From contig CAWICQ010000001.1 in NCBI GenBank assembly GCA_963834755.1, forward strand, positions 59,566 through 123,565: DNA of 64,000 nt. The letters are read 5' to 3'. The DNA comes from an uncultured Gammaproteobacteria bacterium (GTDB lineage Bacteria > Pseudomonadota > Gammaproteobacteria > Xanthomonadales > Rhodanobacteraceae). Each line of letters starts with the position of its first letter. The stretch's first letter is position 1. The notes under the pieces are model-generated. The model was not told where the DNA came from. It worked only from the letters and a program-made list of their open reading frames with translations, and made no database searches. This document shows positions 23,150 to 38,853 of the stretch, piece after piece. Made by a program: the position numbers and the translations under genes.

Positions 23150-23172
23150 GCCGGTGCAAGATCGCGCTCGAC

Positions 23173-23186: not shown

Positions 23187-23244
23187 ATGGCGCTATTCGG
23201 GACCGGGCTAGGTTCACCAGGTGTCCACTCAAGAGCATGCTGTC

Positions 23245-23682
23245 ATGTTCAGGCACATCCTGTTGCCGATCGATGGGTCCGAGCTTTCGGAGAAGGCCGT
23301 GCGTTCCGGCGTGCGTCTGGCCAAGACGTTCGGCGCGAGCGTCACGGCGTTCCACATGAAGCCCAAGGTGGATGGTTTCACGGCGATGATGAATGGCTTC
23401 GAGAAGACGCCAGGCGACTACGCCGAGGATGCCGAGAGGCGATCGAAGACGCTCCTTTCGTACGTCAGCCGCGCCGCCAAGGCGGCAGGTGTCGACTGCG
23501 ACGTCGTGAGCTCGACCGGCCACGATCCGTTCAAGGAGATCATCAAAGTGGCGACTGCGAGAAAATGCGATCTCGTCGTCATGGGCTCGCACGGACGGCG
23601 CGGCATCGAAGCCGTGCTGATGGGAAGCGAAACGCACAAACTGCTCACGCACAGTCGCGTTCCGGTGCTTGTGTACCGCTGA
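23245..23682 (+). CDS. Universal stress protein
   Basis: ILLPIDGS...DLVVMGSHGRRG...LMGSET. An alternative GTG start exists at 23221. Confidence 0.92.
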   Translation: MFRHILLPIDGSELSEKAVRSGVRLAKTFGASVTAFHMKPKVDGFTAMMNGFEKTPGDYAEDAERRSKTLLSYVSRAAKAAGVDCDVVSSTGHDPFKEIIKVATARKCDLVVMGSHGRRGIEAVLMGSETHKLLTHSRVPVLVYR

Positions 23683-23760
23683 GGACGCAGTGCGTATGAC
23701 GATCCCGAATTCATCGCGGACCCGCTGTCGATGCTTCTTCGGATTCCGCGCGGCGGCGGG

Positions 23761-23774
23761 TTGATCTGGATCAA
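23761..23774. promoter_or_regulatory. FNR/FixK box upstream of the BON gene
   Basis: Perfect TTGAT-CTGG-ATCAA, centred about 64 nt before the ATG at 23832. Confidence 0.9.
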
Positions 23775-23831
23775 CACAATCCGCGTGCGGCTGACACAGG
23801 CTGATGCCGTATTCAATACGGAGGCGTCAAC

Positions 23832-24488
23832 ATGAATGCGAAGACCGATCGCCAGCTGCAGAAGGACGTCATGGAGGAGCTGGCCTGGGATCCCGCGATC
23901 GAAGCGAATCGAATCGGCGTCGACGTCGAGGACGGCATCGTAAGCCTGTCCGGCCATGTGCGCAGCTACGCGGAAAAATGCAACGCCGAGAAGGCCGCCC
24001 AACGCATCGCGGGCGTGAAAGGAGTCGTCGTCGATCTCAGCGTCGCGCTGCCGGGCGGAGCGGAGCACAGCGACGCGGAGCTCGCCAAGCGAGTGATCTC
24101 GGCGCTCGAGTGGAGCATTTCGGTGCCGCGGGATACGGTCAAGATACGCGTCGAAGAGGGTTGGGTCACATTGACGGGCGATGTCGATTGGGCGTACGTG
24201 CGCGATGCGGCCGAGTCGTGCGTGCGCAGCCTCATCGGCATCAAAGGTGTCGTCAACAAGATCGACGTGCATCCCAAAGTGGCGCTCGAGCACGTGAAAG
24301 CGAAGATTGAGGCCGCGCTGCAACGCCGGGCGCACGCGGACGTGGACGGAATTACCGTGACCGCGAAGGACGGTATCGTTACGCTCACCGGTTGCGTCGA
24401 TTCGCTCGCCGAGCGTCTTACGATGGAAAGTGCCGCGTGGAACACGCCCGGCGTGCGTAAAGTCGTCGACAATCTCACCATCACCTGA
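23832..24488 (+). CDS. Triple BON-domain protein (OsmY-like)
   Basis: Three repeats of G.V.L.G.V motifs; GVRKVVDNL end; no signal peptide. Confidence 0.9.
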   Translation: MNAKTDRQLQKDVMEELAWDPAIEANRIGVDVEDGIVSLSGHVRSYAEKCNAEKAAQRIAGVKGVVVDLSVALPGGAEHSDAELAKRVISALEWSISVPRDTVKIRVEEGWVTLTGDVDWAYVRDAAESCVRSLIGIKGVVNKIDVHPKVALEHVKAKIEAALQRRAHADVDGITVTAKDGIVTLTGCVDSLAERLTMESAAWNTPGVRKVVDNLTIT

Positions 24489-24509
24489 GGCGGCCCGCGC
24501 CGATCCGAC

Positions 24510-24974
24510 ATGTACAAACGCCTTCTGGTCTGCACCGATGGTTCGCCTCTCGCGCAGAGTGCTGCGCGGGAAGGCGTGAAGCTCGCTGCATCGCTGCGCG
24601 CGCGCGTCGTCGCGTTGCTCGTGACGCCGCCGTTCGAGCCGCCGAAGGGGTACGAATCATCGCCACTTGCTGCACAGATCCGACAGCACGAGCGCGAAAG
24701 CAAGGCGATGGCCGCGCGCTGTCTTGACGCCATCGCGCGCGAGGCCAAAGAGCTCGGCATAGTGTGCAAGACGCGGCACGTCGGCAAGTACCCGCCCGCG
24801 GCGACGATCGTCGAGACCGCGGCGGAGGAGAAGTGCGATCTCATCGTGATGGGCTCGCACGGCCACGGCGCGCTCGGACAGCTCTTCGTCGGATCGGTGA
24901 CGACACGCGTGGCAGCGACATGCTCGGTGCCCTTGCTGATCGTGCGCCCGCGCGCTGGCAAGGGTAGGAAATAG
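24510..24974 (+). CDS. Universal stress protein
   Basis: LVCTDGS...DLIVMGSHGHG...VGSVT. Confidence 0.92.
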   Translation: MYKRLLVCTDGSPLAQSAAREGVKLAASLRARVVALLVTPPFEPPKGYESSPLAAQIRQHERESKAMAARCLDAIAREAKELGIVCKTRHVGKYPPAATIVETAAEEKCDLIVMGSHGHGALGQLFVGSVTTRVAATCSVPLLIVRPRAGKGRK

Positions 24975-25000
24975 GCTAGGAAAGAAATAGGCGACGAACG

Positions 25001-25915
25001 TCACCCACGCGGAGCGGCGTCACCGATGCGCTCGAGCTGACGCAGGATCGGTGGCGCCAGAACCGGCACGATGTCAATCGCATTGGTCGGATGTGGGATC
25101 GTATTCGTCGTGACAACGCGTCCAACGCCCGCGTCGAGAATTTCCTGATACGCATCTGCCGCGAAGATGCCGTGCACGGCGACGCAAGCCGGCGCCGCTG
25201 GCGTCGCGACACGCAGACGTCTGACGACTTGCATGAGCGTTCGCCCTGACGAGATGATGTCATCGACGATCACGGGCGTGCGTCCTTCGATCTCGGCGGT
25301 CGGCAGCGAACAGACTTCGACCTCGCGGTCACCGAGCCGCTGCTTGCTGAGCGCCAAGATGGGCGCCCCGATCGCGACGCCGAGTGGCTGCACCCACTGC
25401 GCGCTCTCGTCGTCGGGACCGATCAGGATCGGATTCGCGACATTGGCCCGAATCCATTCGCCGATCGGCGGTATCGCCGTGACATGTTCGACTGGAATGC
25501 CGAACAGCGCGCCGAGATCGTGGCGCCGGTGCAGGTGAGGATCGACCGTGACCAGCCAGTCGAAAATCGACGACAGGAATGAAGCGAAATGCGCCGACGC
25601 AAGAGCTTCGCCGGGATGGAAGCGCGCGTCCTGGCGCATATACGCAAGATACGGTGCAGCAAGTCCGACCGAACGCGCGCCGAGCTCGCGCGCCGTGCGC
25701 GCGGCGAACAGCAGCGGTAATGCGAGCGGATCGGGATCTCGAAGCGTGCCGACAATGACGACGTCGCGCCCGCGGCATTCGCCTTCGAGAGCGAGCAGCG
25801 ATTCACCGTCGGGAAAATGTCTCCATCGCAGCGTTCCCATCTGCGCGCCCAACCGCTCGCAGAGGTGTGCGGCGAGCTGATCGACGCGTGGGAATGCGAA
25901 CAGGATCGGCGTCAT
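25001..25915 (-). CDS. Ribose-phosphate pyrophosphokinase paralogue
   Basis: FPDGE, PYLAYMRQD, DPHLH, GPD, VDDIISSGRT. Confidence 0.9.
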   Translation of the reverse strand: MTPILFAFPRVDQLAAHLCERLGAQMGTLRWRHFPDGESLLALEGECRGRDVVIVGTLRDPDPLALPLLFAARTARELGARSVGLAAPYLAYMRQDARFHPGEALASAHFASFLSSIFDWLVTVDPHLHRRHDLGALFGIPVEHVTAIPPIGEWIRANVANPILIGPDDESAQWVQPLGVAIGAPILALSKQRLGDREVEVCSLPTAEIEGRTPVIVDDIISSGRTLMQVVRRLRVATPAAPACVAVHGIFAADAYQEILDAGVGRVVTTNTIPHPTNAIDIVPVLAPPILRQLERIGDAAPRG

Positions 25916-27429
25916 GATCCTTCGCCGATGCGCAGCAGCGCCGCATGTTGATCGAGATACGCTCGTGCGTAATCGAGTTCGCCGGCCGATTCGGCGTGCA
26001 GCGTGAGCAACGGTTCGCCGACGTTTACCCTGGCGCCGAGCGGCGTATTCAGCACCAGCCCAGCCGCGGCATCGCGCGGCGCGCCGGCGAGTTTGGCCAC
26101 CTTGGCGAGCTTGCGATTGTCGATCTCCTCGACGATGCCATCGCGCGTCGCGAGGAATTCGAATCGGTACGCTGCGACGGGCGGCTCATGCATGCCACCT
26201 TGCGCAAGGCAGATCGCTTCGAACTTGCGCAAGGCAGCACCCGAGCGCAGCAGATGTTCGGCTCTGCTCCTGTTGATGCCGGGCGTCGTCGAGTCGAAGT
26301 CGAGCACTTTCGCTGCGAGCTCGAGCGCGCGCTCCCGCAGATCAGCCGGCGCATCGTCTGCGTTGCGCAGCACGCGCAGGACATCCCAGGCTTCGAGCGC
26401 CGGACCGATGCCGCGCCCGATCGGCTGACGTCCGTCGCAGACATGCACGGCAATGTGAAGGCCGATTGCGCCACCGACATCGACGAGCCGCTTGCCGAGC
26501 ACCGCAGCGGCGTCGAGGCTGCGGACCTTGGCCGTCGGTCCGACGGGAACGTCGATCACGACGTGCGTGGAGCCAGCCGCTTTCTTCTTCGACAGCACGC
26601 TTGCAGTGAGCTGCGCATCGCTGTCGAAGTCGAGCGGGCGCTCCACGCGAATCAGTACGTCGTCGGCCGGGCTCAGGCTGACCGCGCCGCCCCAGACGAT
26701 GCAGCCGCCTTCGCGCTCAACGACACGGCGCATTGCCGGAAGATCGAGATCGACCTTGGTCAGCGTCGCCATGGTGTCGGCTGTTCCTGCCGGCGAGGTG
26801 ATCGCGCGCGACGATGTCTTCGGGATCAGCGAACCGGCCGCGGCGACGATCGCAACGACGATCGGTGTCGTCCGGTTGCCCGGCAGTCCGCCGACGCTGT
26901 GCTTGTCCAGCACCGGCGAGCGCGACCATTCGATCCGCTCGCCGACGCCGACCATCGCTTCGGTCAATGCGATATTTTCCTTGAGGTCAAACGCCGGGCC
27001 CGCGCAAGCCGCGATGAATGCGGCCAGTTCGATGTCCGAGAGCCGCCCGTCGATTGCATCGCGAAGGAGGCGTTCGTATTGGCCGCGATCGAGCGCGTGT
27101 CCGAACACTTTTGAGCGCAGATCGCTCGCCGATTCGGCCGGCTGGGGATATTCGAAAGTCACCCGCTCCCCATCGTGCGCACCAAGGCGACGCCACGCCG
27201 CCTCCGAGAGTCCGGCCGTGAACGCATCCAGCCATGTGCCGGTGACGACGTTCAGTGTCGCCACGATGCTGCGCTCACCAAGACAGATGCGAATGCGCGA
27301 CAGCGACTCGAAACCGATCGACTTGCACACCGAGCATTCGCGATTCAGGTAGACGACGGATTCCTGATACGTGTCGACGCCGAGTCGTCGAACCTGGAGC
27401 TGCGTTGTGACGGGGATGGCAGCACCCAT
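25912..27429 (-). CDS. AMP/thymidine phosphorylase family, archaeal AMP-phosphorylase-like
   Basis: Extra N-terminal domain of about 85 aa plus DKHSVGGLPGNRTT and PKTSSRAITSPAGTAD; about 505 aa. Confidence 0.88.
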   Translation of the reverse strand: MGAAIPVTTQLQVRRLGVDTYQESVVYLNRECSVCKSIGFESLSRIRICLGERSIVATLNVVTGTWLDAFTAGLSEAAWRRLGAHDGERVTFEYPQPAESASDLRSKVFGHALDRGQYERLLRDAIDGRLSDIELAAFIAACAGPAFDLKENIALTEAMVGVGERIEWSRSPVLDKHSVGGLPGNRTTPIVVAIVAAAGSLIPKTSSRAITSPAGTADTMATLTKVDLDLPAMRRVVEREGGCIVWGGAVSLSPADDVLIRVERPLDFDSDAQLTASVLSKKKAAGSTHVVIDVPVGPTAKVRSLDAAAVLGKRLVDVGGAIGLHIAVHVCDGRQPIGRGIGPALEAWDVLRVLRNADDAPADLRERALELAAKVLDFDSTTPGINRSRAEHLLRSGAALRKFEAICLAQGGMHEPPVAAYRFEFLATRDGIVEEIDNRKLAKVAKLAGAPRDAAAGLVLNTPLGARVNVGEPLLTLHAESAGELDYARAYLDQHAALLRIGEGS

Positions 27430-27434
27430 CGCCC

Positions 27435-28253
27435 TCAGCCCTTGAGATAGAGCGGCACGCCGGCGTGTTGCAGGAGATAGCGCGGGATGGGATCGAGGTG
27501 CACGTCGCCGAATCGACTCTTGCCCGGAGCACCCGCGACGACAAGATCCACGCGATGACGAGACGCTGCTTCGAGCAGCGCGTCGGCGGCCTCGTCCGCG
27601 CCTGCATCCAGCTCCTCGAGCTCGATCGCGATGCCATGTTTTGCAAGGTGATGCAGCGGGTCGAATGGCGGGCGTCCGTCGGGTCGTTCCACCGGCCAGT
27701 TCCCGCGCAGCAGAACGACGCAGGTCGCCCTGCCGAGCAGTGGAAGCGCTTCGTGCAGCGCGCGGATCGAAGCGGACGAACCATCGTAGACGAGCGCGAT
27801 GCGCTCGAGCCGGCCGATTGCGTAGGTCGCTTCCGGCACCACGATGCAGGCGAATCCGGACAGCAGCGTTTCGCTGATCAAGTCGATCGCTCGCTCGGCT
27901 TCGGCGTTCGGCCGCTCGAACACGACGACGTCGCTCCAGTTGGCGGCGACGCCTACAACATTCGCCGCATCGCCGAGTGCGACCTGCCACTGCGCTCTCT
28001 GCACGCCGAATTGCCGCGCCCACGTGGCGAAGCGCGGTCCGGCCAGCATGGCGGCCTGCACTTCGTCCTGCGCGTAGGCGATCAACTCCGCACCGATCGA
28101 TGCCGGCATGCCGCTCGGTGTCCGTAACGGCAACCGCGGCGCGACGTGAATGCCGGTCAACGACGCGTCGACGGTCGCCGCAAGCTCCGCCGCATAGCGG
28201 GCGCCGGGCGACCACGTATGGATGTCGGCGCAATAGGCGAGGATATCCTGCAC
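27435..28253 (-). CDS. Tandem-domain universal stress protein (divergent)
   Basis: MQDILAY, LVYDGSSASIRALHEALP, DLVVAGAPG. Confidence 0.85.
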   Translation of the reverse strand: MQDILAYCADIHTWSPGARYAAELAATVDASLTGIHVAPRLPLRTPSGMPASIGAELIAYAQDEVQAAMLAGPRFATWARQFGVQRAQWQVALGDAANVVGVAANWSDVVVFERPNAEAERAIDLISETLLSGFACIVVPEATYAIGRLERIALVYDGSSASIRALHEALPLLGRATCVVLLRGNWPVERPDGRPPFDPLHHLAKHGIAIELEELDAGADEAADALLEAASRHRVDLVVAGAPGKSRFGDVHLDPIPRYLLQHAGVPLYLKG

Positions 28254-28263
28254 GCGCGCCGCT

Positions 28264-28995
28264 TCACTGCAGTTTCAGAGTATGGATGACCTGTCTTGGA
28301 TCATCCGGATCGGTCTTGCGACGGAAACCGAAGAACTTGGCCAGATCGCGCATGCCCGTGTTGCCGACCTCGTCGATCGACATCATCGATCGCACACCGC
28401 GCGATCGCGCGACTTCGATCAGATGCCGCATCAGCAATGCGCCGAGTCCGCGGTTGCGCCATTCGTCACTCACGGTGACAGCGCATTCTGAGGTCTTGCC
28501 GTCCTTGCTCGTGCTGTAGCGTGCGACGCCGATTTCGACCTTCTCGCCGTCGCGGTGGATCAGCGCGACGAACGCCATGTCGCGCCGATAGTCGATGTCG
28601 GTCAGGTTGTGAATCAGCTCATCGCTCGGCTCGTTCATCTGGCCGAGAAAGCGCAGACGCCGCGATTCCGGCGAAAGGCGTTTGATGAAAGCCCGCTCAA
28701 GTGCTGCGTCTTCCTTGTGGATCGGGCGGATCAGAATGCGCGTGCCGTCTGCGAGCGTCTCGGTCCATCGCGGATCGTCACGTGACGGAGCGGTCGTGAC
28801 GAGCGCCTTGGCGGGTTTTCCTACCGGACGCGGCGCTTTCGGCTTGCGCGCCGACGCGTTGGATTTTGCCTTCGCGGCGGTCTTGCGTCGCATGGGTTTC
28901 GCGACGGTCTTGCTGCGGCGCGACCGCGCACTGTCGGTCGTCTTGGCCTTCACGGAAGCGCGGCGGCGCGGGGTACGGGTCGAACGGGTGGCCAT
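28264..28995 (-). CDS. GNAT acetyltransferase with a Lys/Arg/Ala-rich N-terminal tail
   Basis: AAGGAG RBS. Core LADG..ILIRPI..ED...LSPESRRLRF...IGVARY...WRNRGLG resembles the Pat/YfiQ GNAT domain. Confidence 0.85.
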   Translation of the reverse strand: MATRSTRTPRRRASVKAKTTDSARSRRSKTVAKPMRRKTAAKAKSNASARKPKAPRPVGKPAKALVTTAPSRDDPRWTETLADGTRILIRPIHKEDAALERAFIKRLSPESRRLRFLGQMNEPSDELIHNLTDIDYRRDMAFVALIHRDGEKVEIGVARYSTSKDGKTSECAVTVSDEWRNRGLGALLMRHLIEVARSRGVRSMMSIDEVGNTGMRDLAKFFGFRRKTDPDDPRQVIHTLKLQ

Positions 28996-29049
28996 GGCGG
29001 CATCTCCTTGAAGCGTGCCGTCACTATGGCCCGGTCGCGCAGCGGGCAA

Positions 29050-29063
29050 TTGATCCACGTCAT
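29050..29063. promoter_or_regulatory. FNR/FixK-like box (2 mismatches) upstream of the GNAT
   Basis: TTGAT-CCAC-GTCAT, centred about 61 nt from the ATG at 28995. Confidence 0.55.
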
Positions 29064-29088
29064 CCGCCGGCGAGATTCGCCCTTCGGG

Positions 29089-30261
29089 TCAGCGTCTGAG
29101 CCGGTCGGTCGCACGCGCGACGACGATCTCCTCGTCGGTGGGAATCGCGAATACGTCGACGCGTGAATCGGGCGCGCTGATGCGCGGGCGGTGGCGCGCA
29201 TTTGCGTCGGCGTCCAGCGCGACGCCGAGCCATGCCGAACAAGCGCAGACGCGACGTCGCATCTGCGCCGAGTGCTCGCCGATGCCGCCGCTGAAGACCA
29301 GCACGTCGAGCCCTTCGAGCGCTGCGGCCATCGCGGCGATCTCGCAGCCCGCGCGATATGCGAAGAGGTCCATGGCTTCCTCGGCATGCGGGTCGCCACT
29401 CGCCTCGAGAACGCGCAGATCGTCGCTGATTCCTGATACGCCGAGCAGGCCGGAACGGTTATAGAGCAAGTCCTCGACGGCGGCGGGCGTCATTGGTCTT
29501 TGCTGCAGCAGATACAGCAATAGACCAGGATCGATCGCGCCGCTGCGCCGACCCATCATGAGTCCATCGAGCGCGGTGAAGCCCATCGTCGTCGCCATGC
29601 TGCGCCGATCGCGCATCGCGCACAGGCTGGCGCCGTTCCCGAGATGGGCGAGGACAACGCGTCCGTTGGCGCGAGCGCCGGCGTAGCGCGGCAGAACGCC
29701 ACTGAGATATTCGTACGAGAGCCCATGAAAACCGTAACGGATGATGCCTTCGGCAGCGAAAGCGCGCGGCAGCGCGAACCATTGTGCGCGCGCCGGTTGG
29801 GTGCGATGGAATGCGGTATCGAAGCACGCGATCTGCGTCAGGCCGGGCCATGTCTGGGCAACCATGCGGATCGCAGCCAGGTTGTGAGGCTGGTGCTGCG
29901 GGGCGAGCGGCACGAGCTTTTCGAGCGCGGCGAGCACGTGCTCGTCTACGACGACAGGCTCCGCGAAATCCATTCCACCATGCACGACGCGATGGCCCGC
30001 CGCCCGAACCACGACGTCGGCCACCGATTGGCGGATGCGATCGAGCAGCCAGCGTCCGGCTGTGGAGTGATCGCGGATCTCGGCCGGCAATTCCGTCTCG
30101 CCGAAATCCGCAGCCCGTGGTCCCTCGATGTGCGCGGCGATGTCGTCGTCGCCAATGTTCTCGATATGGACTCGGCACTGCAGATCGAGCGTGCCGGCGG
30201 CATAGAGCGCGACCTTGATGCTCGACGAGCCGACATTGAGAACCAGGATCGCTTCGATCAT
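29089..30261 (-). CDS. ackA: Acetate/propionate kinase
   Basis: NVGSSSIK, GHRVVHGG, APQHQP, FDTAFH, GFHGLSY, HLGNGAS, GGIGE, PTDEE. Confidence 0.93.
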   Translation of the reverse strand: MIEAILVLNVGSSSIKVALYAAGTLDLQCRVHIENIGDDDIAAHIEGPRAADFGETELPAEIRDHSTAGRWLLDRIRQSVADVVVRAAGHRVVHGGMDFAEPVVVDEHVLAALEKLVPLAPQHQPHNLAAIRMVAQTWPGLTQIACFDTAFHRTQPARAQWFALPRAFAAEGIIRYGFHGLSYEYLSGVLPRYAGARANGRVVLAHLGNGASLCAMRDRRSMATTMGFTALDGLMMGRRSGAIDPGLLLYLLQQRPMTPAAVEDLLYNRSGLLGVSGISDDLRVLEASGDPHAEEAMDLFAYRAGCEIAAMAAALEGLDVLVFSGGIGEHSAQMRRRVCACSAWLGVALDADANARHRPRISAPDSRVDVFAIPTDEEIVVARATDRLRR

Positions 30262-31649
30262 TTCGACGCGCTTCGGAAATGCTCGAGCAGCACGGCAAGC
30301 GCGCAGGACGCCAGTCTCGCCAGCACGTCGTCCGAGCGGCTGGTGAGCACGATCGGAACGCGTGCGCCGAGCACGATCCCCGCCGAGTCGGCGCCGGAAA
30401 GGTAGATGAGCTGCTTGGCCAGCATATTGCCCGACTCGAGGTCGGGCACAACGAGTATGTCGGCGTCGCCGGCGACGGGCGAAACAATCTGTTTCGTCTC
30501 AGCGGCTGCGCGCGAGATCGCGTTGTCGAACGCGAGCGGCCCGTCGACGAGACCACCGACGATCTGGCCGCGATCGACCATCTTGCACAGCGCCGCGGCC
30601 TCGACCGTCGAGTGAATCTTCGGGTTGATCGTCTCGACCGCCGACAAGATCGCCACCTTCGGCAATCGAATCGCGATCGCGTGCGCGAGATCGATCGCGT
30701 TCTGGACGATGTCGCGCTTGTCCATCAGGTCGGGATAGATATTGATCGCGGCGTCGGTGAGCAGCAACGGTTTGGGATATGTCGGGACGTCGAGCGCGAA
30801 AACGTGACTCATGCGCCGTTCCGTGCGCAAACCCGAAGCGGCGTCGACCACGGCCGCCATCAGCTCGTCGGTGTGCAGCGCGCCCTTCATCAGTGCGCGG
30901 ACCGCACCGCTGCGCGCGAGATCGACGGCGCGCGCCGCGGCCGCGTGGCTGTGCGGCGTGTCGAGGATCTCGACCCCATCGAGCGAAAGTCCTGCCGCAG
31001 CGGCCGTCTTGCGGATCTTCGCTTCGGGTCCGACCAGCACCGGCACGATCAACAGCTTGCTCCTCGCTTCGAGAGCGCCGGTCAGCGACAGCTCGTCGCA
31101 CGGATGCACAACCGCCATGCGCAACGGTTCCAGCGATCGCGTCGCGTCGATCAGCTGGCGATAGCGCAGGCCGCGCTCGTGCAGGTGCACCTCCGCAAGC
31201 GCGGTGCGCGGCCGTCGCACTTTCGCGGTCGGTGCGATGACGCTGGCGACGCCCTCGACGACGACATCACCTGCCTGATTGCGACACACGCAATCCAGCG
31301 TGACACGGTTGCCCGGCATGTGCTTCTCGCGCACGCTGACGCGCACCGTGACCGTATCGCCGACGCCGACCGGTTTGCGGAAATGCAGGGTCTGGTCGAC
31401 ATAGATCGTGCCCGGTCCCGGCAGTTCCGTACCCAACACGGCCGATATCAGCGCGCCGCCCCACATTCCGTGCGCGATGACTTTGTGGAACACATCGGAG
31501 CGGGCGAAGTTCTCGTCGACATGTTCGGGATTGACGTCGCCGGACAATACCGCGAACAACTCGATGTCGTCCTTGCGCAAGGTGCGCGTGATCTCGGCCT
31601 GATCGCCAACCTTGAGCTCGTCGTAGGTCTTGTTCTCGATGTACTGCAT
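30258..31649 (-). CDS. Bifunctional MaoC-type enoyl-CoA hydratase / phosphate acyltransferase
   Basis: N-terminal SGDVNPEH..AHGMW hot-dog domain; C-terminal MKGALHT, DGPLAFDNA, SRSD. Confidence 0.92.
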   Translation of the reverse strand: MQYIENKTYDELKVGDQAEITRTLRKDDIELFAVLSGDVNPEHVDENFARSDVFHKVIAHGMWGGALISAVLGTELPGPGTIYVDQTLHFRKPVGVGDTVTVRVSVREKHMPGNRVTLDCVCRNQAGDVVVEGVASVIAPTAKVRRPRTALAEVHLHERGLRYRQLIDATRSLEPLRMAVVHPCDELSLTGALEARSKLLIVPVLVGPEAKIRKTAAAAGLSLDGVEILDTPHSHAAAARAVDLARSGAVRALMKGALHTDELMAAVVDAASGLRTERRMSHVFALDVPTYPKPLLLTDAAINIYPDLMDKRDIVQNAIDLAHAIAIRLPKVAILSAVETINPKIHSTVEAAALCKMVDRGQIVGGLVDGPLAFDNAISRAAAETKQIVSPVAGDADILVVPDLESGNMLAKQLIYLSGADSAGIVLGARVPIVLTSRSDDVLARLASCALAVLLEHFRSASK

Positions 31650-31723
31650 CGGTTTTCCGCCCGCGCATCCAGTCCCGTGGTTCGGCTCAAGCGTACAGTG
31701 TCGCCGACGTATGTGTCGCATGA

Positions 31724-31737
31724 TTGACCAGGATCAA
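31724..31737. promoter_or_regulatory. FNR/FixK box in the divergent MaoC-pta / MBL promoter
   Basis: TTGAC-CAGG-ATCAA, placed between ATG 31649 (-) and ATG 31803 (+). Confidence 0.8.
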
Positions 31738-31802
31738 GCGTCGCGGCGGCCGACCATCTAGAGTGCGCAGGCCGGGCGCGTCGCTGGCGGGGGAGGATGC
31801 GG

Positions 31803-33203
31803 ATGATCGCAATCACATGCCACGGCGCCGCCCGGCAAGTCACAGGGTCCTGTCACCTCCTCGAATGCGCCTCGCAGCGAATGCTGATCGACTGCGGCCT
31901 CTTTCAGGGCAGCGATGCGGTCGAGAACGGCAATGCGGCGGAATTCGGCTTCGATCCCGCGTCGATCGACTTCGTTCTACTGACCCACGCGCACCTCGAT
32001 CATTGCGGTCGCATACCGTTGTTGGTCAAACGAGGATTTCGTGGCGAAATCATCGCGACCGCTCCGACGCGCGAACTGGCGCGGCTCGTGATGAGCGACG
32101 CCGCGTCGCTGCAGCAAGAGGACGCGCGCATGCGCTCGCGGCGACTGCATCGCGGCGGAAATGCCGATTCGGTGCCGCTCTACACGATCGACGATGCGTT
32201 CCATGCGATGGATTTCTTCGGCCGCAAGGCCGAGTACGGACGCGATATCGACCTCGCGCCGGACCTGCGCGTTCGCTTCGTCGATGCCGGACACATGCTC
32301 GGATCCGCTTGCGTGCTCGTCGATGCGGGAACCGGCGCTTCGCGCCGGCGCATCCTGTTCTCGGGCGACATCGGCAATCCGGGCCGGCCGCTGCTGCGCA
32401 TTGCCGAGCCGCCGCCGGCGGCGGATGTCGTGGTGATGGAAGCGACGTACGGCGATCGCAACCATCGATCGATGTCGGCCAGTGTCGATGAGCTCGTCGC
32501 CGCGATCAAGGACAGGCTCGACAGCGGCGGCAATGTGGTCATCCCGACGTTCGCGCTCGAACGCGCGCAGGAAGTCATCTTTCATCTCGCCAATGCCGTG
32601 CGCGCAGGCACGCTGCCGCGCAACTTGCGCGTCTTCCTCGATTCGCCGATGGCGATCTCGGCGACTTCGATCTTTGCGCGCTATCCCGATTGTCTGGGCG
32701 AAGAATCACGCGCGCGCATTGCCGCCGGCAGCGACCCGTTCGGGCTGCCGACGCTGCGCTTCACGCGCGATGTCGCCGAGTCGATGGCGATCAACAATAT
32801 CGACGGCGGAGCGGTGATCCTTGCGGGCTCCGGCATGTGCACCGGCGGCCGTGTGCTCCATCACCTCAAGCACAATCTCTGGCGCGAGAATGCCGGCGTC
32901 GTATTCGTCGGCTACGCCGCCGAAGGGACACCCGCGCGCCGCATCATCGATGGCGCCGACTACGTGCGCATTCTCGGCGAGGAAATCCGCGTTCGCGCGA
33001 AGATATGGACGATCAATGGCTTCTCGGCGCACGCGGGTCAGGACGATCTGCTGCGCTGGATCGCGCACACCGGCGCACCGCGCAAGGTCCTGCTGGTCCA
33101 TGGCGAGCCGGCGCGAGGCATGCAACCGCTTGCCGAACGCATTCGGCAGAGCGGACTCTCCGTCGAGATGCCCGCCCAGGGCGAACGCCTGACGTTCGAC
33201 TGA
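31803..33203 (+). CDS. MBL-fold beta-CASP ribonuclease (RNA-metabolising)
   Basis: DCG, THAHLDHCG, AGHMLGS, FSGDIG, FSAHAG, LVHGE. Confidence 0.92.
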   Translation: MIAITCHGAARQVTGSCHLLECASQRMLIDCGLFQGSDAVENGNAAEFGFDPASIDFVLLTHAHLDHCGRIPLLVKRGFRGEIIATAPTRELARLVMSDAASLQQEDARMRSRRLHRGGNADSVPLYTIDDAFHAMDFFGRKAEYGRDIDLAPDLRVRFVDAGHMLGSACVLVDAGTGASRRRILFSGDIGNPGRPLLRIAEPPPAADVVVMEATYGDRNHRSMSASVDELVAAIKDRLDSGGNVVIPTFALERAQEVIFHLANAVRAGTLPRNLRVFLDSPMAISATSIFARYPDCLGEESRARIAAGSDPFGLPTLRFTRDVAESMAINNIDGGAVILAGSGMCTGGRVLHHLKHNLWRENAGVVFVGYAAEGTPARRIIDGADYVRILGEEIRVRAKIWTINGFSAHAGQDDLLRWIAHTGAPRKVLLVHGEPARGMQPLAERIRQSGLSVEMPAQGERLTFD

Positions 33204-33237
33204 CGTCGCACCGCGCACGCGGCAGATTCGCTCCGAC

Positions 33238-33251
33238 TTGACGCAGATCAG
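33238..33251. promoter_or_regulatory. FNR/FixK-like box (2 mismatches) upstream of USP-adh
   Basis: TTGAC-GCAG-ATCAG in the intergenic gap. Confidence 0.55.
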
Positions 33252-33338
33252 GATGGTGCCGGGCGCCGCTCGCTAGCGTGTCCCCTCGAAGCCGACGCCT
33301 CCTTCACGAGGAGATCGACAAGCGCGAGAGGACAGGTC

Positions 33339-34169
33339 ATGCAGGACGTTCTGATCTATGTGCACAGCCTCAAGCAGCCTTGGGATCCCGTGGTCGAATA
33401 CGGTGGACGACTGGCTGCGCTGCTCGGCGCCTCGGTCACTGGTGCCTACGTCTATCCATGGCCGCAATATTCGCCGCCGCCGTTCAGCTCGCCTGACTTC
33501 ATCGCGCTCATCTTCCAGAATTCGCGTGCGCAGGAGGCTGCCGCGAAGGCGGCCGAGGAACCTTTCAAGCGCTGGGCGAAGTCGGTCGGCGTCCGCGATA
33601 CGACCTGGCACGTCGCGGAAGGGTACCTGCCGGATGCGCTTGCGCAGATCGGTACGTGGCACGATTTGCTCGTGCTCGAGCTCAATTCGGATGCGCCGTG
33701 GGGTTCGCCTTCGGATGTGGCGAGTCTGGTACTCGCGTCGCATCTGCCGACCGTCATAGTTCCTGGCATGCAGAAATTGAATGGCGCGCCGGGCTGCGTG
33801 CTGGTCGCATGGAACGGCGCCCCGGAATCGGTCCGCGCGATCCACGCGGCACTGCCGTTGCTCCAGCGCGCCAAGCGCGTGGTCATGTTGTGCGGCGAGC
33901 GACGCAACAGCTATCTCGAGATCACCTGGAAACCGCCGTTCGACATGAACGCCTACCTGCTCCGGCATGGCGTCAAGCTCGAATTTCGGAATCTCGAGGT
34001 GGACGATGAGCAGGCCGGCGCGGCGATTCTCGATGCCGCGTCGGAGCTCAAGGCCGAACTCATCGTCATGGGAGCCTACGGCCGAAATCGTTTCAGCGAG
34101 TGGGCGCTCGGCGGCGCGACGCGTCATGTGCTGAATCACACTCAGGTACCGGTCTTCATGCGTCATTGA
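33339..34169 (+). CDS. Tandem-domain universal stress protein
   Basis: LVAWNGAPESVRA, IVMGAYGRNRFSEWALGGATRHVL; paralogue of 22257-23081. Confidence 0.9.
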   Translation: MQDVLIYVHSLKQPWDPVVEYGGRLAALLGASVTGAYVYPWPQYSPPPFSSPDFIALIFQNSRAQEAAAKAAEEPFKRWAKSVGVRDTTWHVAEGYLPDALAQIGTWHDLLVLELNSDAPWGSPSDVASLVLASHLPTVIVPGMQKLNGAPGCVLVAWNGAPESVRAIHAALPLLQRAKRVVMLCGERRNSYLEITWKPPFDMNAYLLRHGVKLEFRNLEVDDEQAGAAILDAASELKAELIVMGAYGRNRFSEWALGGATRHVLNHTQVPVFMRH

Positions 34170-34217
34170 GCGAAGCGTATCGTTCTCGGTGTCGGCAAGC
34201 TGCCAGGGTACGCGGAC

Positions 34218-35201
34218 GTGCGTGCGATGGTGTCCATGGGAGCGGGGCTACCGCTTCGGTACCGGGAGTTGCCCGATCCGGCCCCGCGGCCGGACGAGGT
34301 TCGTCTGCGCATAGAAGCCTGCGGCGTCTGCCGGACCGATCTGCATGTCGTCGATCGGGAGTTGCCCGACACGCCCGCGCAAATCATCCCGGGACATGAA
34401 GTCGTCGGTGTTGTCGATGTGGTCGGCGCGAATGTCTCCGCCTTCTCGGTCGGCGACCGCGTCGGGGTTCCATGGCTTGGCTCGACGTGCGGTCATTGCG
34501 AATACTGCCACGCCGGTCGCGAAAACCTTTGCGATGCGCCGACGTTCACCGGCTACACGCGATCAGGCGGATTCGCCACGCACATCGTCGCGTGCGCCGA
34601 TTACTGCGTGCCGTTGCCGGCCGGCGTAGATCCCGTCGCGACCGCGCCACTTCTATGCGCCGGGCTGATCGGCTGGCGTTGCTTGCAGAAAACAGGAGAA
34701 GCGTTTCGCATCGGTTTGTACGGATTCGGCGCGGCGGCTCACATCGTCGCCCAGATCGCGCGATGGCAGCGTCGCGAGGTGTTCGCCTTCACGCGCGCGG
34801 GCGATCTCGAGACGCAGGCGTTCGCGCGATCGCTCGGAGCCGCCTGGGCGGGCGCTTCCGGCGATGCACCACCGGTTGCGCTCGATGCGGCGATCATTTT
34901 CGCACCGGTCGGATCGCTGGTCGTCGACGCGTTGCGCGCCGTGAAGAAGGGCGGCCGCGTCGTCTGCGGCGGCATCCACATGAGCGACATTCCTTCGTTT
35001 GGCTATCAGCTGCTGTGGCACGAGCGCGAGATCGTATCGGTCGCCAACTTGACACGCGCCGATGCGCACGAATTTTTCGCGGTCGCGCCGCGCGCGGGTA
35101 TCGTGGTCACGACCACGCGTTATACGCTCCAGGATGCGAATCGCGCTCTGACCGATTTGCGCAACGGAACGTTCGACGGAGCCGCGGTACTGGTTCCGTA
35201 A
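34218..35201 (+). CDS. Zn-dependent alcohol dehydrogenase (AdhP-like)
   Basis: CGVCRTD, GHEVVG, CGHCEYC...C, LCAG, GLYGFG. Confidence 0.92.
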   Translation: MRAMVSMGAGLPLRYRELPDPAPRPDEVRLRIEACGVCRTDLHVVDRELPDTPAQIIPGHEVVGVVDVVGANVSAFSVGDRVGVPWLGSTCGHCEYCHAGRENLCDAPTFTGYTRSGGFATHIVACADYCVPLPAGVDPVATAPLLCAGLIGWRCLQKTGEAFRIGLYGFGAAAHIVAQIARWQRREVFAFTRAGDLETQAFARSLGAAWAGASGDAPPVALDAAIIFAPVGSLVVDALRAVKKGGRVVCGGIHMSDIPSFGYQLLWHEREIVSVANLTRADAHEFFAVAPRAGIVVTTTRYTLQDANRALTDLRNGTFDGAAVLVP

Positions 35202-35220: not shown

Positions 35221-35236
35221 GTTACGAACCGTTACA
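35221..35236 (+). promoter_or_regulatory. Tandem direct repeat GTTACG-N4-GTTACA (K-box-like OmpR-family site)
   Basis: GTTAC at 35221 and 35231 with a weaker GTTGC at 35241 (10-bp period), 79 nt upstream of the FixK-like ATG. Confidence 0.7.
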
Positions 35237-35314
35237 AACGGTTGCTGCGGCGACGTCGAATTGTGAGCGTCGGCCGATAACGTCTCTTCCGCGAACCCGC
35301 GTTAGGAGACCGAC

Positions 35315-36037
35315 ATGAACATCGCATGCGCCGCCAGCAGAATCGAACCGGCCGTTGTCGCGGCGTCGGCACGCTTCAACAGCGCCGCCATCGATATCGA
35401 TCTGCTGCGTCAGCACGTCGAGGTGTTTCGCCGGAAGATATCGGCCGGTGAATACATCTATCGCGCGGGACAGCCGATGCAGGCCGTGTTTCTGGTCCAT
35501 GTCGGATCGCTCAAAACCTGCGAGCTCGCGACGGACGGCCGTGAACAGATCACCGGATTCCGCATGCGCGGCGATCTGGTCGGCGTGGAGTCGATCGGCC
35601 TTGCGACCTATGCGTGCGATGCGATTGCGCTCGAAGACTGCGAAGTCTGGGAATTGCCGTACCCGCCGGTCCTGAAGGCGTGCCTGGAGATTCCGGAATT
35701 GCACAACCGCTTCACGGCTGCCCTGGCGGAGGAGATCCGGCGCGATCGAAGCTGGATGCTTGCGCTCGGCACGTTGACCGCCGAGCAGCGCGTCGCCGCG
35801 TTCCTGATCGATGTCGCGGCCCGTTACGCGGAGCTCGGTTTCAGCGACCGTCATTTCCTGTTGCGTATGAGCCGCGCCGACATGGCGAATTTCCTCGCGC
35901 TGAAACACGAGACCGTCAGCCGGGCGCTGTCGCGTCTGCAGGACCTGTGCTTTATTGCGGTCCAGCGCCGCGAGGTCAAGGTGATGGACATGCCGGAGCT
36001 GCGCCGGCTGGCCGCGGGTTCTGCGACGATCCACTGA
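35315..36037 (+). CDS. Crp/Fnr-family regulator, FixK-type (no N-terminal Fe-S Cys cluster)
   Basis: DGREQITGF, SRADMANFL, recognition helix ETVSR; only one Cys in the N-terminal region. Confidence 0.9.
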   Translation: MNIACAASRIEPAVVAASARFNSAAIDIDLLRQHVEVFRRKISAGEYIYRAGQPMQAVFLVHVGSLKTCELATDGREQITGFRMRGDLVGVESIGLATYACDAIALEDCEVWELPYPPVLKACLEIPELHNRFTAALAEEIRRDRSWMLALGTLTAEQRVAAFLIDVAARYAELGFSDRHFLLRMSRADMANFLALKHETVSRALSRLQDLCFIAVQRREVKVMDMPELRRLAAGSATIH

Positions 36038-36049
36038 GACGCGGCGGCT

Positions 36050-38107
36050 TCAGGCGGCTCGGTCGGCGTCCAGCGTTTTGCGCAAGGCGGCCGCTAATTG
36101 CTCGCGGCGATAGGGCTTGCGTAGCACATCGGATTCGATCGATGCCGACGGCTCGCTTGCTTCGGCAGCGTGTTCATAACCGGACGTGAGCAATACCGGC
36201 AGATGAGGTCGCAATACCCTCGCTTCGCGGACGAGGTCGAAGCCGGTCATGCCGCTGCCGAGCACGATGTCGGAAAACAGCAGTTCGATATCGGTGTGCT
36301 GCCTGAGAAGCGCGAGCGCGTTCTCGGCATCGCTTGCTTCATAGGTCGTGTAGCCGAGTGAACGCAGGAAGGCGAGGGCGATTCCGCGCACTTCGGCTTC
36401 GTCTTCGACGACGAGAATGGTTTCTTTTCCTTCGCGCGGCGGTATTGCGTCGCGGACGGGATGTGCGAGGTCCGCGTTGGAGCCCGCGGGCAGATAAAGA
36501 TCGACGCGCGTCCCTTGGCCGACGTGGCTTTCAATGGCGACCTGACCGCCCGACTGCCGGGCAAATCCGTACACCATGCTGAGGCCAAGTCCGGCGCCTT
36601 TGCCGGCGTCCTTGGTCGTGAAGAAGGGTTCCAGCGCGCGCGCACACACTTCCGGCGCCATGCCGGTGCCGGTGTCGACGACGCTGAACACGACGTAGGC
36701 GCCGGGCGGCAGATCGATACGATCCGTCCCGGATTCCAGGACGTGCTCGCGGACGCCGATGTTAAGAGCACCGCCATTCGGCATCGCGTCGCGCGCGTTG
36801 AGAGCGAGGTTGATGAGCGCCGCCTCGAGTTCGCCCGGATCGGCAAACACCGGAGTCTTGTCTGCCTCGCCCAGTTCGACCGAAACGGCGATGTGCTCGC
36901 CCAGGGTGCGCCGAAGCATGCCTTGCAGATCGGAAAGAACCTGGCCAGGCAGGATGGGCCGCGGGACCAGGTGTCGTCTGCGCGCGAATGCCAGCAGCTT
37001 GCGTGTGAGTACAGCACCGCGGTCGACGGCACGCAACGCGCTGTCGATCGTTTCGCCCAGCGCGGGGCGGTCCGCAAGCTCCGCTTCGAGAATCTGAAGA
37101 TTGCCCGAGATCACGGTCAGCAGATTGTTGAAATCGTGCGCGATGCCGCCGGTGAGTTGTCCCACTGCGTCCAATCGTTGGGAATGCGCAAGCTGTTCCT
37201 CGCTGCGACTGCGTTGAGCGGCCGCGGCAAGAATATTTCCGACCGATTGCAGGAAATGCAGGGCATCGCGGTCGAAGTGATCGCGTTTGCCGGACAACGC
37301 GAGCAACACGCCCATCGGCTGGTAGCGATCGAGCAGCAAGACGGCGGCCGCATCGCGAAAACCGGCGTCGCCGAGCGCGGCGACGAGGGGCGCGAACTCG
37401 CTGCCGATCAGCTGTTTCAGCGTGATGCCCGCGGGCGCGTCGCGCTCGACGCGGGCGAATAGCGCGCTCTGCGGAATCGTCCGCGGCAGTGTTTCGCGAA
37501 GACTGCGCGGAAGGCCGGTTTCCGCGTGCACGCGCAGATCGTCGCTGCGCGGGCCCGCAAGCAGAACCACGGCAGCACGGATCGCCAACGCCGACGCCAC
37601 GAGCGCGGGCATCTTCTCAACGGCCGCTTCGTAGTTCGAAGATTCGAGCGCAAGGCGACCGATCTGCGCGGCGAACGTGTCGTGTCGCGCGCGCGTCAAA
37701 GCCTGTCGCACGCGATGCGTTTCGGAGATGTCGCGAATCGAAGCGGCGAATAATATGCTTTTCGACGACTGGATCGGACTGAGCCCGATCTCCACCGGAA
37801 AGGGTTGCCCGTTGCGGCGAACGCCGGTCAACTCATAGCCCGCGCCCATCGGGCGGACGCGTGGGTTTGCCATGAATCCGTTGCGGTGGCCGACATGAAC
37901 CGCGCGCACGCTTTCCGGCAGCAGGACTTCCACGGGCGATCCCGCGAGTTCTCCGGCCTCGTATCCAAACAGGCGTTCCGCCTGCGGATTCGCCAGGACG
38001 ATGCAACCATCGCGATTGACCACGATCATCGCATCGGGCGCCGTCTCGAACAGCGCTTCGAACAGCGCCGAGTCGATCGGTTCGTCGGATCCGGCCGGAG
38101 GCGTCAT
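36050..38107 (-). CDS. Hybrid sensor histidine kinase PAS-GAF-HisKA-HATPase-REC (FixL-like PAS)
   Basis: PAS ETAPDAMIV...FGY...LLPESVRAVH...GVRRNGQPFP; H-box GIAHDFNNLL; NARDAM; DTGTGM; FFTTK; REC EDE...FSD...KP. Confidence 0.92.
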   Translation of the reverse strand: MTPPAGSDEPIDSALFEALFETAPDAMIVVNRDGCIVLANPQAERLFGYEAGELAGSPVEVLLPESVRAVHVGHRNGFMANPRVRPMGAGYELTGVRRNGQPFPVEIGLSPIQSSKSILFAASIRDISETHRVRQALTRARHDTFAAQIGRLALESSNYEAAVEKMPALVASALAIRAAVVLLAGPRSDDLRVHAETGLPRSLRETLPRTIPQSALFARVERDAPAGITLKQLIGSEFAPLVAALGDAGFRDAAAVLLLDRYQPMGVLLALSGKRDHFDRDALHFLQSVGNILAAAAQRSRSEEQLAHSQRLDAVGQLTGGIAHDFNNLLTVISGNLQILEAELADRPALGETIDSALRAVDRGAVLTRKLLAFARRRHLVPRPILPGQVLSDLQGMLRRTLGEHIAVSVELGEADKTPVFADPGELEAALINLALNARDAMPNGGALNIGVREHVLESGTDRIDLPPGAYVVFSVVDTGTGMAPEVCARALEPFFTTKDAGKGAGLGLSMVYGFARQSGGQVAIESHVGQGTRVDLYLPAGSNADLAHPVRDAIPPREGKETILVVEDEAEVRGIALAFLRSLGYTTYEASDAENALALLRQHTDIELLFSDIVLGSGMTGFDLVREARVLRPHLPVLLTSGYEHAAEASEPSASIESDVLRKPYRREQLAAALRKTLDADRAA

Positions 38108-38853
38108 TCCCGTCGAACCTGCGCGGCAAACAGGTACCCGGCTCCGCGCACGGACTTGATGATTTCCGGCCGCGCGGGATCAGTCTCGATCTTGCGCCGC
38201 AGCCGGCTGATCTGCACGTCGATCGCCCGGTCGAATGGACCGGCGTCGCGCCCGTGCAGGTGCGTCATCAAATCGTCACGCGACAACACGCGATTCGGAT
38301 GCTCCACGAGAATCTTCAGAAGCGCGAATTCGCCACTCGTCAGATCCACCGGCGCGCCATGCCGATCGATCAAGGAATACGCTCTTGCGTCGAGGCGGAA
38401 ACCCGAGAAAACCAGTGTCGAACCATCCTGCGCCGAACTTGCATCGCGTTCGCTCGTGCGACGCAGTACCGTGCGAACGCGCGCAAGCAGCTCGCGCAGA
38501 TCGAAGGGTTTGGTCACGTAGTCATCGGCACCGAGCTCGAGTCCGACGACGCGATCCACGGATTCCCCGCGACCCGTCACGATGATGACGGAACCGCGCC
38601 ATTGCTGGCGCAGATAACGCGTCAGATCGAAACCGTCCTCGCCCGGCAAACCCAGATCGAGCAGGATCAGATCGACAGAAATCTCCCTGGCGAGTGCCTC
38701 TCGCATCGCAGCGCCGTCGGTTGCCGTGCTGACGCGAAAGCCCTGCGCCGTGAAATAGCGCACGACCAGCGCGGCGATATCGGGATCATCGTCGACGATC
38801 AGCAGATGATGGTTGCAGACTTGGTTGGCGGAGGTGGAGGTCGAATCGTGCAT
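38104..38853 (-). CDS. OmpR/PhoB-family response regulator (FxkR-like)
   Basis: VDDD, LLDLGLP, GADDYVTKPF, FDRAIDVQISRLRRKIE; stop overlaps the kinase start. Confidence 0.93.
   Translation of the reverse strand: MHDSTSTSANQVCNHHLLIVDDDPDIAALVVRYFTAQGFRVSTATDGAAMREALAREISVDLILLDLGLPGEDGFDLTRYLRQQWRGSVIIVTGRGESVDRVVGLELGADDYVTKPFDLRELLARVRTVLRRTSERDASSAQDGSTLVFSGFRLDARAYSLIDRHGAPVDLTSGEFALLKILVEHPNRVLSRDDLMTHLHGRDAGPFDRAIDVQISRLRRKIETDPARPEIIKSVRGAGYLFAAQVRRE

Follow-up and report, generated by a model that had tools for sequence, protein, structure and literature searches.

A low-oxygen signalling chain built from a hybrid histidine kinase (hFixL), the OmpR-type response regulator FxkR and FixK has been described from Rhizobium etli CFN42, Rhizobium leguminosarum (johnstonii) 3841 and Sinorhizobium meliloti pSymA, as far as the accounts cited here go (PMC7888657; Zamorano-Sanchez 2012 as cited in PMC4999443). 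In the same accounts, members of the FxkR clade are reported to bind the K-box motif in R. etli by gel shift (as cited in PMC4999443, PMC7888657), and the origin of hFixL-FxkR-FixKf has been placed in the Rhizobiaceae ancestor (PMC4999443). Within the literature searched, FxkR was met in the contexts of rhizobia or legume symbiosis only, among the matches listed, and a search for hFixL together with Xanthomonadales or Rhodanobacter returned nothing relevant. The locus reported here lies in a 64-kb stretch of DNA (the window) from a 4.05-Mb genome assembly (95% complete) and probably represents a low-oxygen or redox signalling chain of the hFixL-FxkR-FixK type. Comparison of sequences suggests that it is a genuine FxkR/K-box/FixK cascade in the Gammaproteobacteria, with relatives in the Betaproteobacteria. 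As reference served the experimentally studied cluster on plasmid pRL9 of strain 3841, whose FxkR9 is genetically characterised, with gene names and K-box positions taken from PMC7888657 (Rutten 2021). The core of the locus consists of the following features.

35221..35245, plus strand: K-box-type operator of three direct repeats with a 10-bp period (GTTACG aacc GTTACA aacg GTTGC), unique in the genome and conserved in orthologous loci
35278..35283, plus strand: predicted -10 element TAACGT (TAnnnT), at the same offset in most orthologues of the repeat-anchored promoter alignment
35315..36037, plus strand: gene for a FixK-like Crp/Fnr regulator of 240 amino acids (aa), without an Fe-S Cys cluster and with an E--SR recognition helix (Pfam, NCBIfam)
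36050..38107, minus strand: gene for a hybrid sensor kinase of 685 aa, with the order PAS (predicted haem type)-GAF-like-HisKA-HATPase-REC (Pfam, NCBIfam, identity to hFixL9, conservation profile, AlphaFold (AF2) model)
38104..38853, minus strand: gene for an FxkR-type response regulator of the OmpR/PhoB family, 249 aa (Pfam, identity, reciprocal best hit, tree, recognition helix)

The initial annotation of this DNA had described a Crp/Fnr gene facing a convergent operon of an OmpR-type regulator and a hybrid kinase, in a gammaproteobacterial (Xanthomonadales-like) host, and both points were confirmed. The open reading frames (ORFs) and Pfam domains give this arrangement of the three genes, with the end of the regulator gene overlapping the start of the kinase gene by 4 nt (translational coupling). 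Among named organisms, the nearest matches to the regulator (76% to 64% identity) belong to Rhodanobacteraceae, Dokdonella, Rudaea and Dyella, which places the host in the Gammaproteobacteria, order Lysobacterales, family Rhodanobacteraceae, and not among the Alphaproteobacteria. Looking up the exact sequence of the regulator gave no database entry. The locus differs from the rhizobial clusters in this host and in having no link with nitrogen fixation, and also in its layout, as the regulator-kinase pair is convergent with the fixK-like gene whereas fxkR of rhizobia is divergent from fixK(-hfixL).

The regulator contains a Response_reg domain (E=7.5e-28) and an OmpR-type Trans_reg_C domain (E=1.7e-25) and is not of the NarL/FixJ type. 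It is 50% identical to FxkR9 of strain 3841 over 233 residues, while the FxkR paralogues of that strain are 58% identical to each other (PMC7888657). When the host genome was searched with FxkR9, this regulator was the reciprocal best hit, with 224 bits vs 181 for the next candidate. Its assignment to FxkR was upheld by a maximum-likelihood tree of 60 OmpR-family sequences, in which the Rhodanobacteraceae orthologues were sister to betaproteobacterial ones (Variovorax, Methylibium and a metagenome-assembled genome (MAG)) and the combined group joined Rlv FxkR9, Ensifer and S. meliloti FxkR with support of 96/90. The eleven other OmpR-type regulators of the host fell outside the FxkR clade, as did a group of paralogues with 44-52% identity which lacks the kinase, FixK and the repeat. 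The recognition helix is nearly identical to that of the rhizobial protein (FDRAIDVQISRLRRKIE here and FDRTIDAQIVRLRRKIE in FxkR9), with a Gln that is common to the FxkR clade and replaced in the paralogues. Judging from its sequence, the regulator may be expected to bind the K-box and to activate fixK at low oxygen. A second FxkR-like gene is located outside the window (C12:981568-982267) and shows 57% identity to FxkR9 in its C-terminal half; it has three in-frame TGA codons in the N-terminal half and is probably a pseudogene.

A K-box upstream of the Crp/Fnr gene had also been claimed, and the match to GTTACR-N4-GTTACR was recovered as GTTACGAACCGTTACA at 35221-35236, with 78 nt between its end and the ATG at 35315. 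Together with a third repeat, the element reads GTTACGaaccGTTACAaacgGTTGC (GTTACGAACCGTTACAAACGGTTGC) over 35221-35245. The rhizobial K-boxes, GTTACAAACTGTTACAAAC of fixK9a and GTTACAAACTGTTACC of fixK9b, have the same core and AACN spacer, and in both settings an operator of the GTTACA-N4-GTTACA type stands upstream of a Crp/Fnr gene whose product is without the Cys cluster. No other GTTACR-N4-GTTACR site was found in the window (0.15 expected; 15 of 100 window shuffles gave one) or in the rest of the genome, for which as a whole ~0.7 were expected by an estimate from base composition. The probability that chance would place such a site in the 100-200 nt ahead of this one gene is estimated at ~1e-5.

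To place these results in the family, a sample of 151 Rhodanobacteraceae genomes was used, and 12.7 kb around 57 regulator loci were compared. An orthologue of the regulator was found in 59 of the 151 genomes (about 40%), distributed over about 17 of 30 genera with 57-70% identity. In 56 of the 57 loci the kinase adjoins the regulator and a FixK-like gene is present, this gene being convergent in most loci and divergent in one genus group. The motif was likewise found in the orthologous promoters, where its absence would have refuted the cascade according to the initial annotation: in 56 of the 57 loci the FixK-like gene is preceded by the repeat, with the pattern GTTAC-N5-GTTAC(-N5-GTTGC), and the sole exception is a locus cut by a contig end. 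The consensus for the family is ctGTTAC..ACcGTTACa.a.cGTTGC. Across the Rhodanobacteraceae the operator thus takes the form of three phased repeats, which corrects the initial annotation.

The exact 25-nt triple pattern was detected in 47 of the 151 genomes, and a reversed control gave 3 hits in 2 genomes. It is present in 46 of the 59 regulator-positive genomes vs 1 of the 92 regulator-negative ones (Fisher's exact p=1e-25), with mismatched versions only in the other 13 regulator-positive genomes and none in 91 of the 92 regulator-negative genomes. The single regulator-negative genome with the triple is a 680-contig assembly, and all other sampled members of its genus have the system.

In the promoter alignment, a TAnnnT hexamer recurs in most orthologues at a constant offset of 57 nt, counted from where the first repeat starts. 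The hexamer of the window, TAACGT, is predicted to be the -10 element, with a transcription start near 35290, in which case the repeats would begin at about -69, -59 and -49. The three repeats would then lie on one helix face beside a poor -35 region, the usual geometry for activators of the OmpR/PhoB type. A scan of 35100-36200 for sigma-70 promoters and terminators gave no match and no consensus sigma-70 promoter, which fits an activator-dependent promoter. For fixK9a of strain 3841, the K-box lies at -77 to -62 relative to the published transcription start (PMC7888657). Compared with this arrangement, the operator of the window differs in its conserved triple repeat and in its distance to the predicted -10 element, 57 nt vs about 66 nt (an estimate), which is ~one helical turn closer.

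Some variation around the operator was observed within the family. In some genera (L142, L144, L154, L160, L165 and L166, one genus group) the regulator gene has a triple K-box of its own ~130 nt upstream, in addition to that of the FixK-like gene, and autoregulation is possible there. Extra triple repeats elsewhere in a few genomes (G113 with four, G062, G079 and G035) suggest further FxkR targets. The genus group with the divergent, rhizobial-style layout (L134, L139, L157 and L159) has a three-GTTAC K-box between the regulator gene and the Crp/Fnr gene, a more distant Crp/Fnr gene (32-36% identity), and genes for an alcohol dehydrogenase (ADH) and a universal stress protein (USP) after the kinase gene.

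The hybrid kinase had been identified as an hFixL, and of this identification the catalytic part stood. The core of histidine kinase (HK) and receiver (REC) is 47% identical to hFixL9 over residues 299-681. The sensor part is different, as the Pfam domains (PAS, a weak GAF with E=7e-4, HisKA, HATPase_c and Response_reg with E=5.9e-14) and the AF2 model give the order PAS-GAF-like-HK-REC and not the PAS-PAS-HK-REC of rhizobia, and the Arg220/RIIGIGR loop of FixL is missing from the PAS domain. The PAS-GAF-HK-REC architecture was also given by independent gene calls on a metagenome contig of a relative, and these calls confirmed the linkage of the overlapping regulator-kinase pair with a convergent FixK-like gene. 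Three domains of the kinase were placed as follows.

37697..38068, minus strand: PAS domain (about aa 14-137) with His71 (37895-37897), His74 and Met87 (37847-37849); matches to haem-PAS entries of the PDB, conservation
37220..37660, minus strand: GAF-like domain (about aa 150-296), poorly conserved and without a conserved His; Pfam GAF, conservation, AF2 fold, matches to PAS-GAF bidomains
36083..36418, minus strand: C-terminal receiver (aa 564-675) with conserved LVVEDe ... lFsDv.LG; Response_reg

The PAS domain is only 25% identical to the haem PAS of hFixL9, and the NCBIfam alignment sets kinase residues 17-139 against the haem PAS of rhizobial FixL. As had been proposed, a His stands at the haem-ligand position of FixL: in both the HMMER and the MAFFT alignment, His71 within PESVRAVH aligns with the proximal His200 of Bradyrhizobium japonicum FixL. 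In an alignment of 56 orthologues the PAS domain was found to be highly conserved, with the motif H..HR..YM..PRvRPMGaG, in which His71, Pro82 and Met87 never vary and His74 hardly does. The FG loop RIIGIGR of FixL and its O2-binding Arg220 are not found in the kinase PAS, where the loop reads PRVRPMGAGY and the position equivalent to Arg220 varies (Y/F/Q/H/M), whereas rhizobial hFixL keeps RIIGYGR.

An HMMER search of the PDB gave haem-PAS domains as the sole hits below E=1e-9, namely FG214 of Fimbriimonas ginsengisoli (10jx, E=6.7e-20), FixL (E=1e-17) and DosP. An AF2 model of residues 8-300, built from 35 orthologues, shows a PAS domain, a long helix and an alpha/beta GAF domain with a mean predicted local distance difference test score (pLDDT) of 88 and low confidence in the FG loop alone. 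Its best match by Foldseek was again 10jx (E=5e-11, 33% identity). In FG214 the proximal haem ligand has been assigned to His156 and the distal one to His175 or Met172, the His156-Met172 pair being seen in a dithionite-soaked crystal (bioRxiv 10.64898/2026.03.15.711900). In the kinase, the places of His156, His159 and Met172 of FG214 are taken by His71, His74 and Met87, and that of His175 by Gly. The two proteins share the proximal His, the His at +3, the Met at +16 and a PRxRxMG FG loop; they differ in that FG214 is a one-component HTH-PAS protein with chiefly bis-His ligation, and the output here is a histidine kinase. From sequence and model, it is rather likely that the kinase PAS binds haem, and this haem would be of the His/Met type, nearer to FG214 and EcDOS than to FixL. 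EcDOS (DosP) shares with this prediction a His/Met axial haem PAS that senses O2 and is among the top PDB matches; it differs in its output, a c-di-GMP phosphodiesterase, and in sequence (23% identity), and its Arg97 is not conserved in the kinase. Haem in the GAF domain, as in DosS/DosT, was rejected, since the GAF-like domain shows little conservation and no His is conserved in it.

The same His/Met PAS subtype, with 43-53% identity to the PAS of the window, was found as 3-5 tandem copies in kinase-like ORFs of other Gammaproteobacteria. If these copies bind haem, the proteins would be multi-haem cytoplasmic sensors.

G446:C3:8029-9846: tandem-PAS kinase-like ORF
G305:C1:100878-101990: tandem-PAS kinase-like ORF
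G472:C123:5357-6493: tandem-PAS kinase-like ORF

The pair of a PAS-GAF-HK-REC kinase and an FxkR-like regulator is not confined to the Rhodanobacteraceae. It is also present in Methylibium, where a FixK-like gene lies convergent to it and the repeat is degenerate, in a betaproteobacterial MAG and on a Variovorax megaplasmid (betaproteobacterial loci L003, L005 and L174), and in one other gammaproteobacterial family. This distribution of architectures indicates that two kinase lineages serve FxkR-type regulators, one being the rhizobial PAS-PAS FixL type with its FixL-type haem pocket and the other the PAS-GAF type of the Beta- and Gammaproteobacteria with its predicted His/Met-type PAS.

The Crp/Fnr protein contains cNMP_binding and HTH_Crp_2 domains (Pfam), and its recognition helix, HETVSRALSRL, is of the FNR kind. 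A CX2CX5C cluster was found neither in this protein nor in any of the 59 orthologues, in agreement with what had been annotated. The best NCBIfam hits were both under the cut-off, with 148 bits for Fnr (cut-off 228) and 90 for FixK (cut-off 300). The suggestion that the cascade replaces Fe-S FNR was borne out for the host genome, in whose 95%-complete assembly the FixK-like gene is the sole FNR-type gene, and did not extend to its relatives. Most genomes of the family, with or without the cascade, hold a paralogue with 37-41% identity and FC-x2-C-x5-C (L192-L196; G043, G062, G135, G027 and G138), by its sequence a classical Fe-S FNR, so that FNR replacement is a trait of the host genome only and the cascade and a CX2CX5C FNR are found together elsewhere. 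This coexistence resembles that of hFixL-FxkR-FixK and FnrN in R. leguminosarum (PMC7888657), from which the host genome differs in being without an FNR partner.

The output which had been expected of a FixK protein, namely TTGAT-N4-ATCAA boxes (anaeroboxes), was recovered in front of the cbb3 oxidase gene ccoN, hemN and others. Seven exact sites were found in the genome vs 0.43 expected (16-fold enriched), two of them in the window, where one near-match was also detected. The sites and the presumed target island are as follows; no strand is assigned to the boxes or to the island.

22052..22065: exact anaerobox TTGATCCTGATCAA, 52 nt upstream of ccoN (20575-21999, minus strand)
23761..23774: exact anaerobox TTGATCTGGATCAA, 57 nt upstream of a BON-domain gene (23832-24488, plus strand), which is followed by a USP gene (24510-24974)
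31724..31737: near-anaerobox with one mismatch, TTGACCAGGATCAA, between the divergent MaoC-pta/ackA operon (29089-31721, minus strand) and a gene for a beta-CASP metallo-beta-lactamase-fold protein (MBL) (31797-33203, plus strand)
C12:413789: exact anaerobox upstream of hemN
C12:785873: exact anaerobox upstream of a di-haem cytochrome c peroxidase gene
C11:69738: exact anaerobox upstream of a gene for an FAD-dependent oxidoreductase
C11:71088: exact anaerobox upstream of a gene of unknown function
C12:786996: exact anaerobox upstream of a gene of unknown function
14617..35201: presumed target island with ccoI, ccoG, ccoP, ccoN, USP, BON, USP, PRS-like, nucleoside/AMP phosphorylase-like, GNAT, ackA, MaoC-pta, beta-CASP MBL, USP and Zn-ADH genes (Pfam, NCBIfam)

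The anaeroboxes and the gene content at 14.6-35.2 kb mark this region as a hypoxia island, in which genes for a cbb3 oxidase and its assembly stand together with three for USP, one for the beta-CASP nuclease and further survival genes. Genes for USP, BON, MBL and ADH also adjoin fxkR-fixK-hfixL on plasmids of Ensifer and Rhizobium, and the anaerobox-driven cbb3 oxidase and hemN are a further likeness to the rhizobial cascade.

The three-tier reading of kinase, FxkR and FixK is supported by the orthology of the regulator, the conservation of the operator and its co-occurrence with the regulator, the anaeroboxes and the gammaproteobacterial placement of the host. The cascade would probably switch on genes for low-oxygen respiration and survival, and its course can be proposed as follows. 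The cytoplasmic kinase would sense O2 or redox state through haem b in its N-terminal PAS domain, bound on the proximal side by His71 and on the distal side by Met87, which could be displaced, after the manner of FG214 and EcDOS, and its autophosphorylation would change. The phosphate would then reach the co-translated OmpR-type FxkR orthologue. Phosphorylated FxkR would bind the three GTTAC/GTTGC repeats head-to-tail at about -69 to -45, a step for which the comparative support is strong, and the activator-dependent promoter would be turned on, with expression of the FixK-like gene. The Cys-less FixK-like protein would in turn bind the TTGAT-N4-ATCAA boxes of ccoNOQP, hemN, the cytochrome c peroxidase gene and the hypoxia-survival island (USP, BON, ackA-pta, beta-CASP and ADH genes). 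In the host genome, oxygen seems to act on the FNR-type regulon through this chain alone, and in relatives the chain would act beside Fe-S FNR.

Several findings weigh against this reading. As Arg220 and RIIGIGR are absent, the signal may be redox state, NO or CO rather than O2 as a ligand, and given the tandem arrays of the PAS subtype, haem loading of every member is not assured. The kinase is hybrid, with no HPt domain in sight for passing phosphate to the regulator, and the same holds for Rhizobium. Identity of the FixK-like protein to rhizobial FixK is only 26-29% (29% to FixK9b), and the absence of an Fe-S FNR rests on the 95%-complete assembly. The host also has a second hybrid kinase outside the window (C10:196131-197987) with the order PAS-PAS-HK-REC, which is 34% identical to hFixL9 over its full length and scores 266 bits against it, vs 274+76 for the kinase of the window. 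This kinase was nevertheless rejected as the true hFixL, as its PAS is of a non-haem type without the ligand His and it is unlinked to the regulator.

The same wiring could also serve a kinase that reports redox state, or NO or CO, through a six-coordinate His/Met haem which switches its ligand on reduction, like FG214. Among solved structures the nearest relative is FG214, for which a redox-regulated haem switch using His156 with His175 or Met172 has been described; the distal Arg of FixL is missing from the kinase PAS, and in a relative the locus is flanked by denitrification genes for NnrS and a Cu-oxidase/cytochrome c protein. The regulon, however, is a classical low-O2 set (cbb3 oxidase, hemN, USP, ackA-pta and ADH), and the distal His175 of FG214 is not conserved here. 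EcDOS (DosP), which is among the PDB matches of the PAS, senses O2 with a His/Met haem. A redox or NO/CO sensor is considered unlikely.

It is more improbable still, and only a slight chance is given to it, that the kinase-regulator pair has nothing to do with the repeat (which another protein would bind) or that the regulator acts as a repressor, with control of the FixK-like protein being post-translational, for instance through oxidation of Cys as in FixK2 of B. japonicum. Operator binding by the regulator has been deduced from sequence, the FixK-like protein has several Cys, and the pair in Variovorax has no FixK gene or K-box nearby. Against this stand the almost perfect co-occurrence of regulator and repeat across the 151 genomes, the position of the regulator within the FxkR clade, whose members are reported to bind the motif in R. 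etli in the accounts cited above, and the predicted placement of the repeats, which lie at -69 to -45 where the promoter has no -35 region and so fit activation of the OmpR/PhoB type. A chance match of the repeat beside an ordinary two-component system was rejected as next to impossible. Although the genome-wide expectation and the shuffled windows would allow for a single site, it is the genome's sole site and lies in the one predicted promoter, and 56 of the 57 loci keep the repeat together with a third repeat and a fixed distance to the -10 element. The low-oxygen cascade of hFixL-FxkR-FixK type thus remains preferred.

This cascade can also be set beside the FixL-FixJ-FixK systems of Bradyrhizobium, Sinorhizobium, Caulobacter and the Burkholderia cepacia complex. 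It shares with them a haem-PAS kinase (the haem being predicted here), a response regulator, FixK and the logic of the anaerobox, and with the Burkholderia lxa locus a hypoxia island with USP, ackA-pta, ADH and other genes. It differs in its OmpR/PhoB-type regulator in place of a FixJ/NarL-type one, its direct-repeat operator in place of a FixJ box, and its hybrid kinase. As judged from the sequences, the logic, the orthologous regulator and the operator were known before, and the host class, the sensor module, the gene arrangement and the triple-repeat operator would be new.

The presence of the cascade and its operator in ~40% of the sampled Rhodanobacteraceae, and of the regulator-kinase pair in Betaproteobacteria, changes the picture of a Rhizobiaceae origin. 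The chances seem about even that FxkR/K-box/FixK is not an invention of the Rhizobiaceae but an old, horizontally mobile proteobacterial module, which in Gamma- and Betaproteobacteria is driven by an undescribed class of His/Met haem-PAS, GAF and hybrid HK sensor and which in this host forms the sole O2 or redox input to the FNR-type regulon. The distribution suggests that the module is a general and mobile solution for two-component control of an FNR-type regulon. The Rhodanobacteraceae include important denitrifiers of soil and groundwater, and it is through oxygen sensing that they time the use of the cbb3 oxidase, of fermentation-like survival pathways and probably of denitrification. In the kinase, a predicted haem-PAS subtype that is new and widely distributed is coupled to a kinase output, so that His/Met and FixL-type oxygen sensing could be compared in a tractable system.

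Within the host's own genus, the regulator was found in 4 of 9 sampled genomes. Remnants of an IS3-family transposase/integrase lie directly past the regulator gene (window 39540-40640 and 40000-44000), an example being the ORF at 40171-40635 with an rve-like ...LRTDNGPEF... motif recognised by eye, and the GC content of the stretch past the regulator is low (0.54-0.57 vs 0.64). Given the patchy presence in the genus, the adjacent IS3 remnants and the low GC, the locus behaves as accessory DNA, and the remnants and the low-GC stretch may be the boundary of the hypoxia island.

Inside the anaerobox island, a phosphoribosyl pyrophosphate (PRPP)-synthetase-like gene overlaps an ORF of 773 aa with glycosyl-transferase-family-3 / PYNP_C domains (window 25001-28233), which by its sequence may encode a nucleoside or AMP phosphorylase-like protein. 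The metagenome loci L189-L191, whose regulator is 73% identical to that of the window, are flanked by genes for NnrS, a multicopper-oxidase/cytochrome c protein and SCO1/SenC, and these neighbours may point to a connection, in that relative, with genes for denitrification or copper enzymes.

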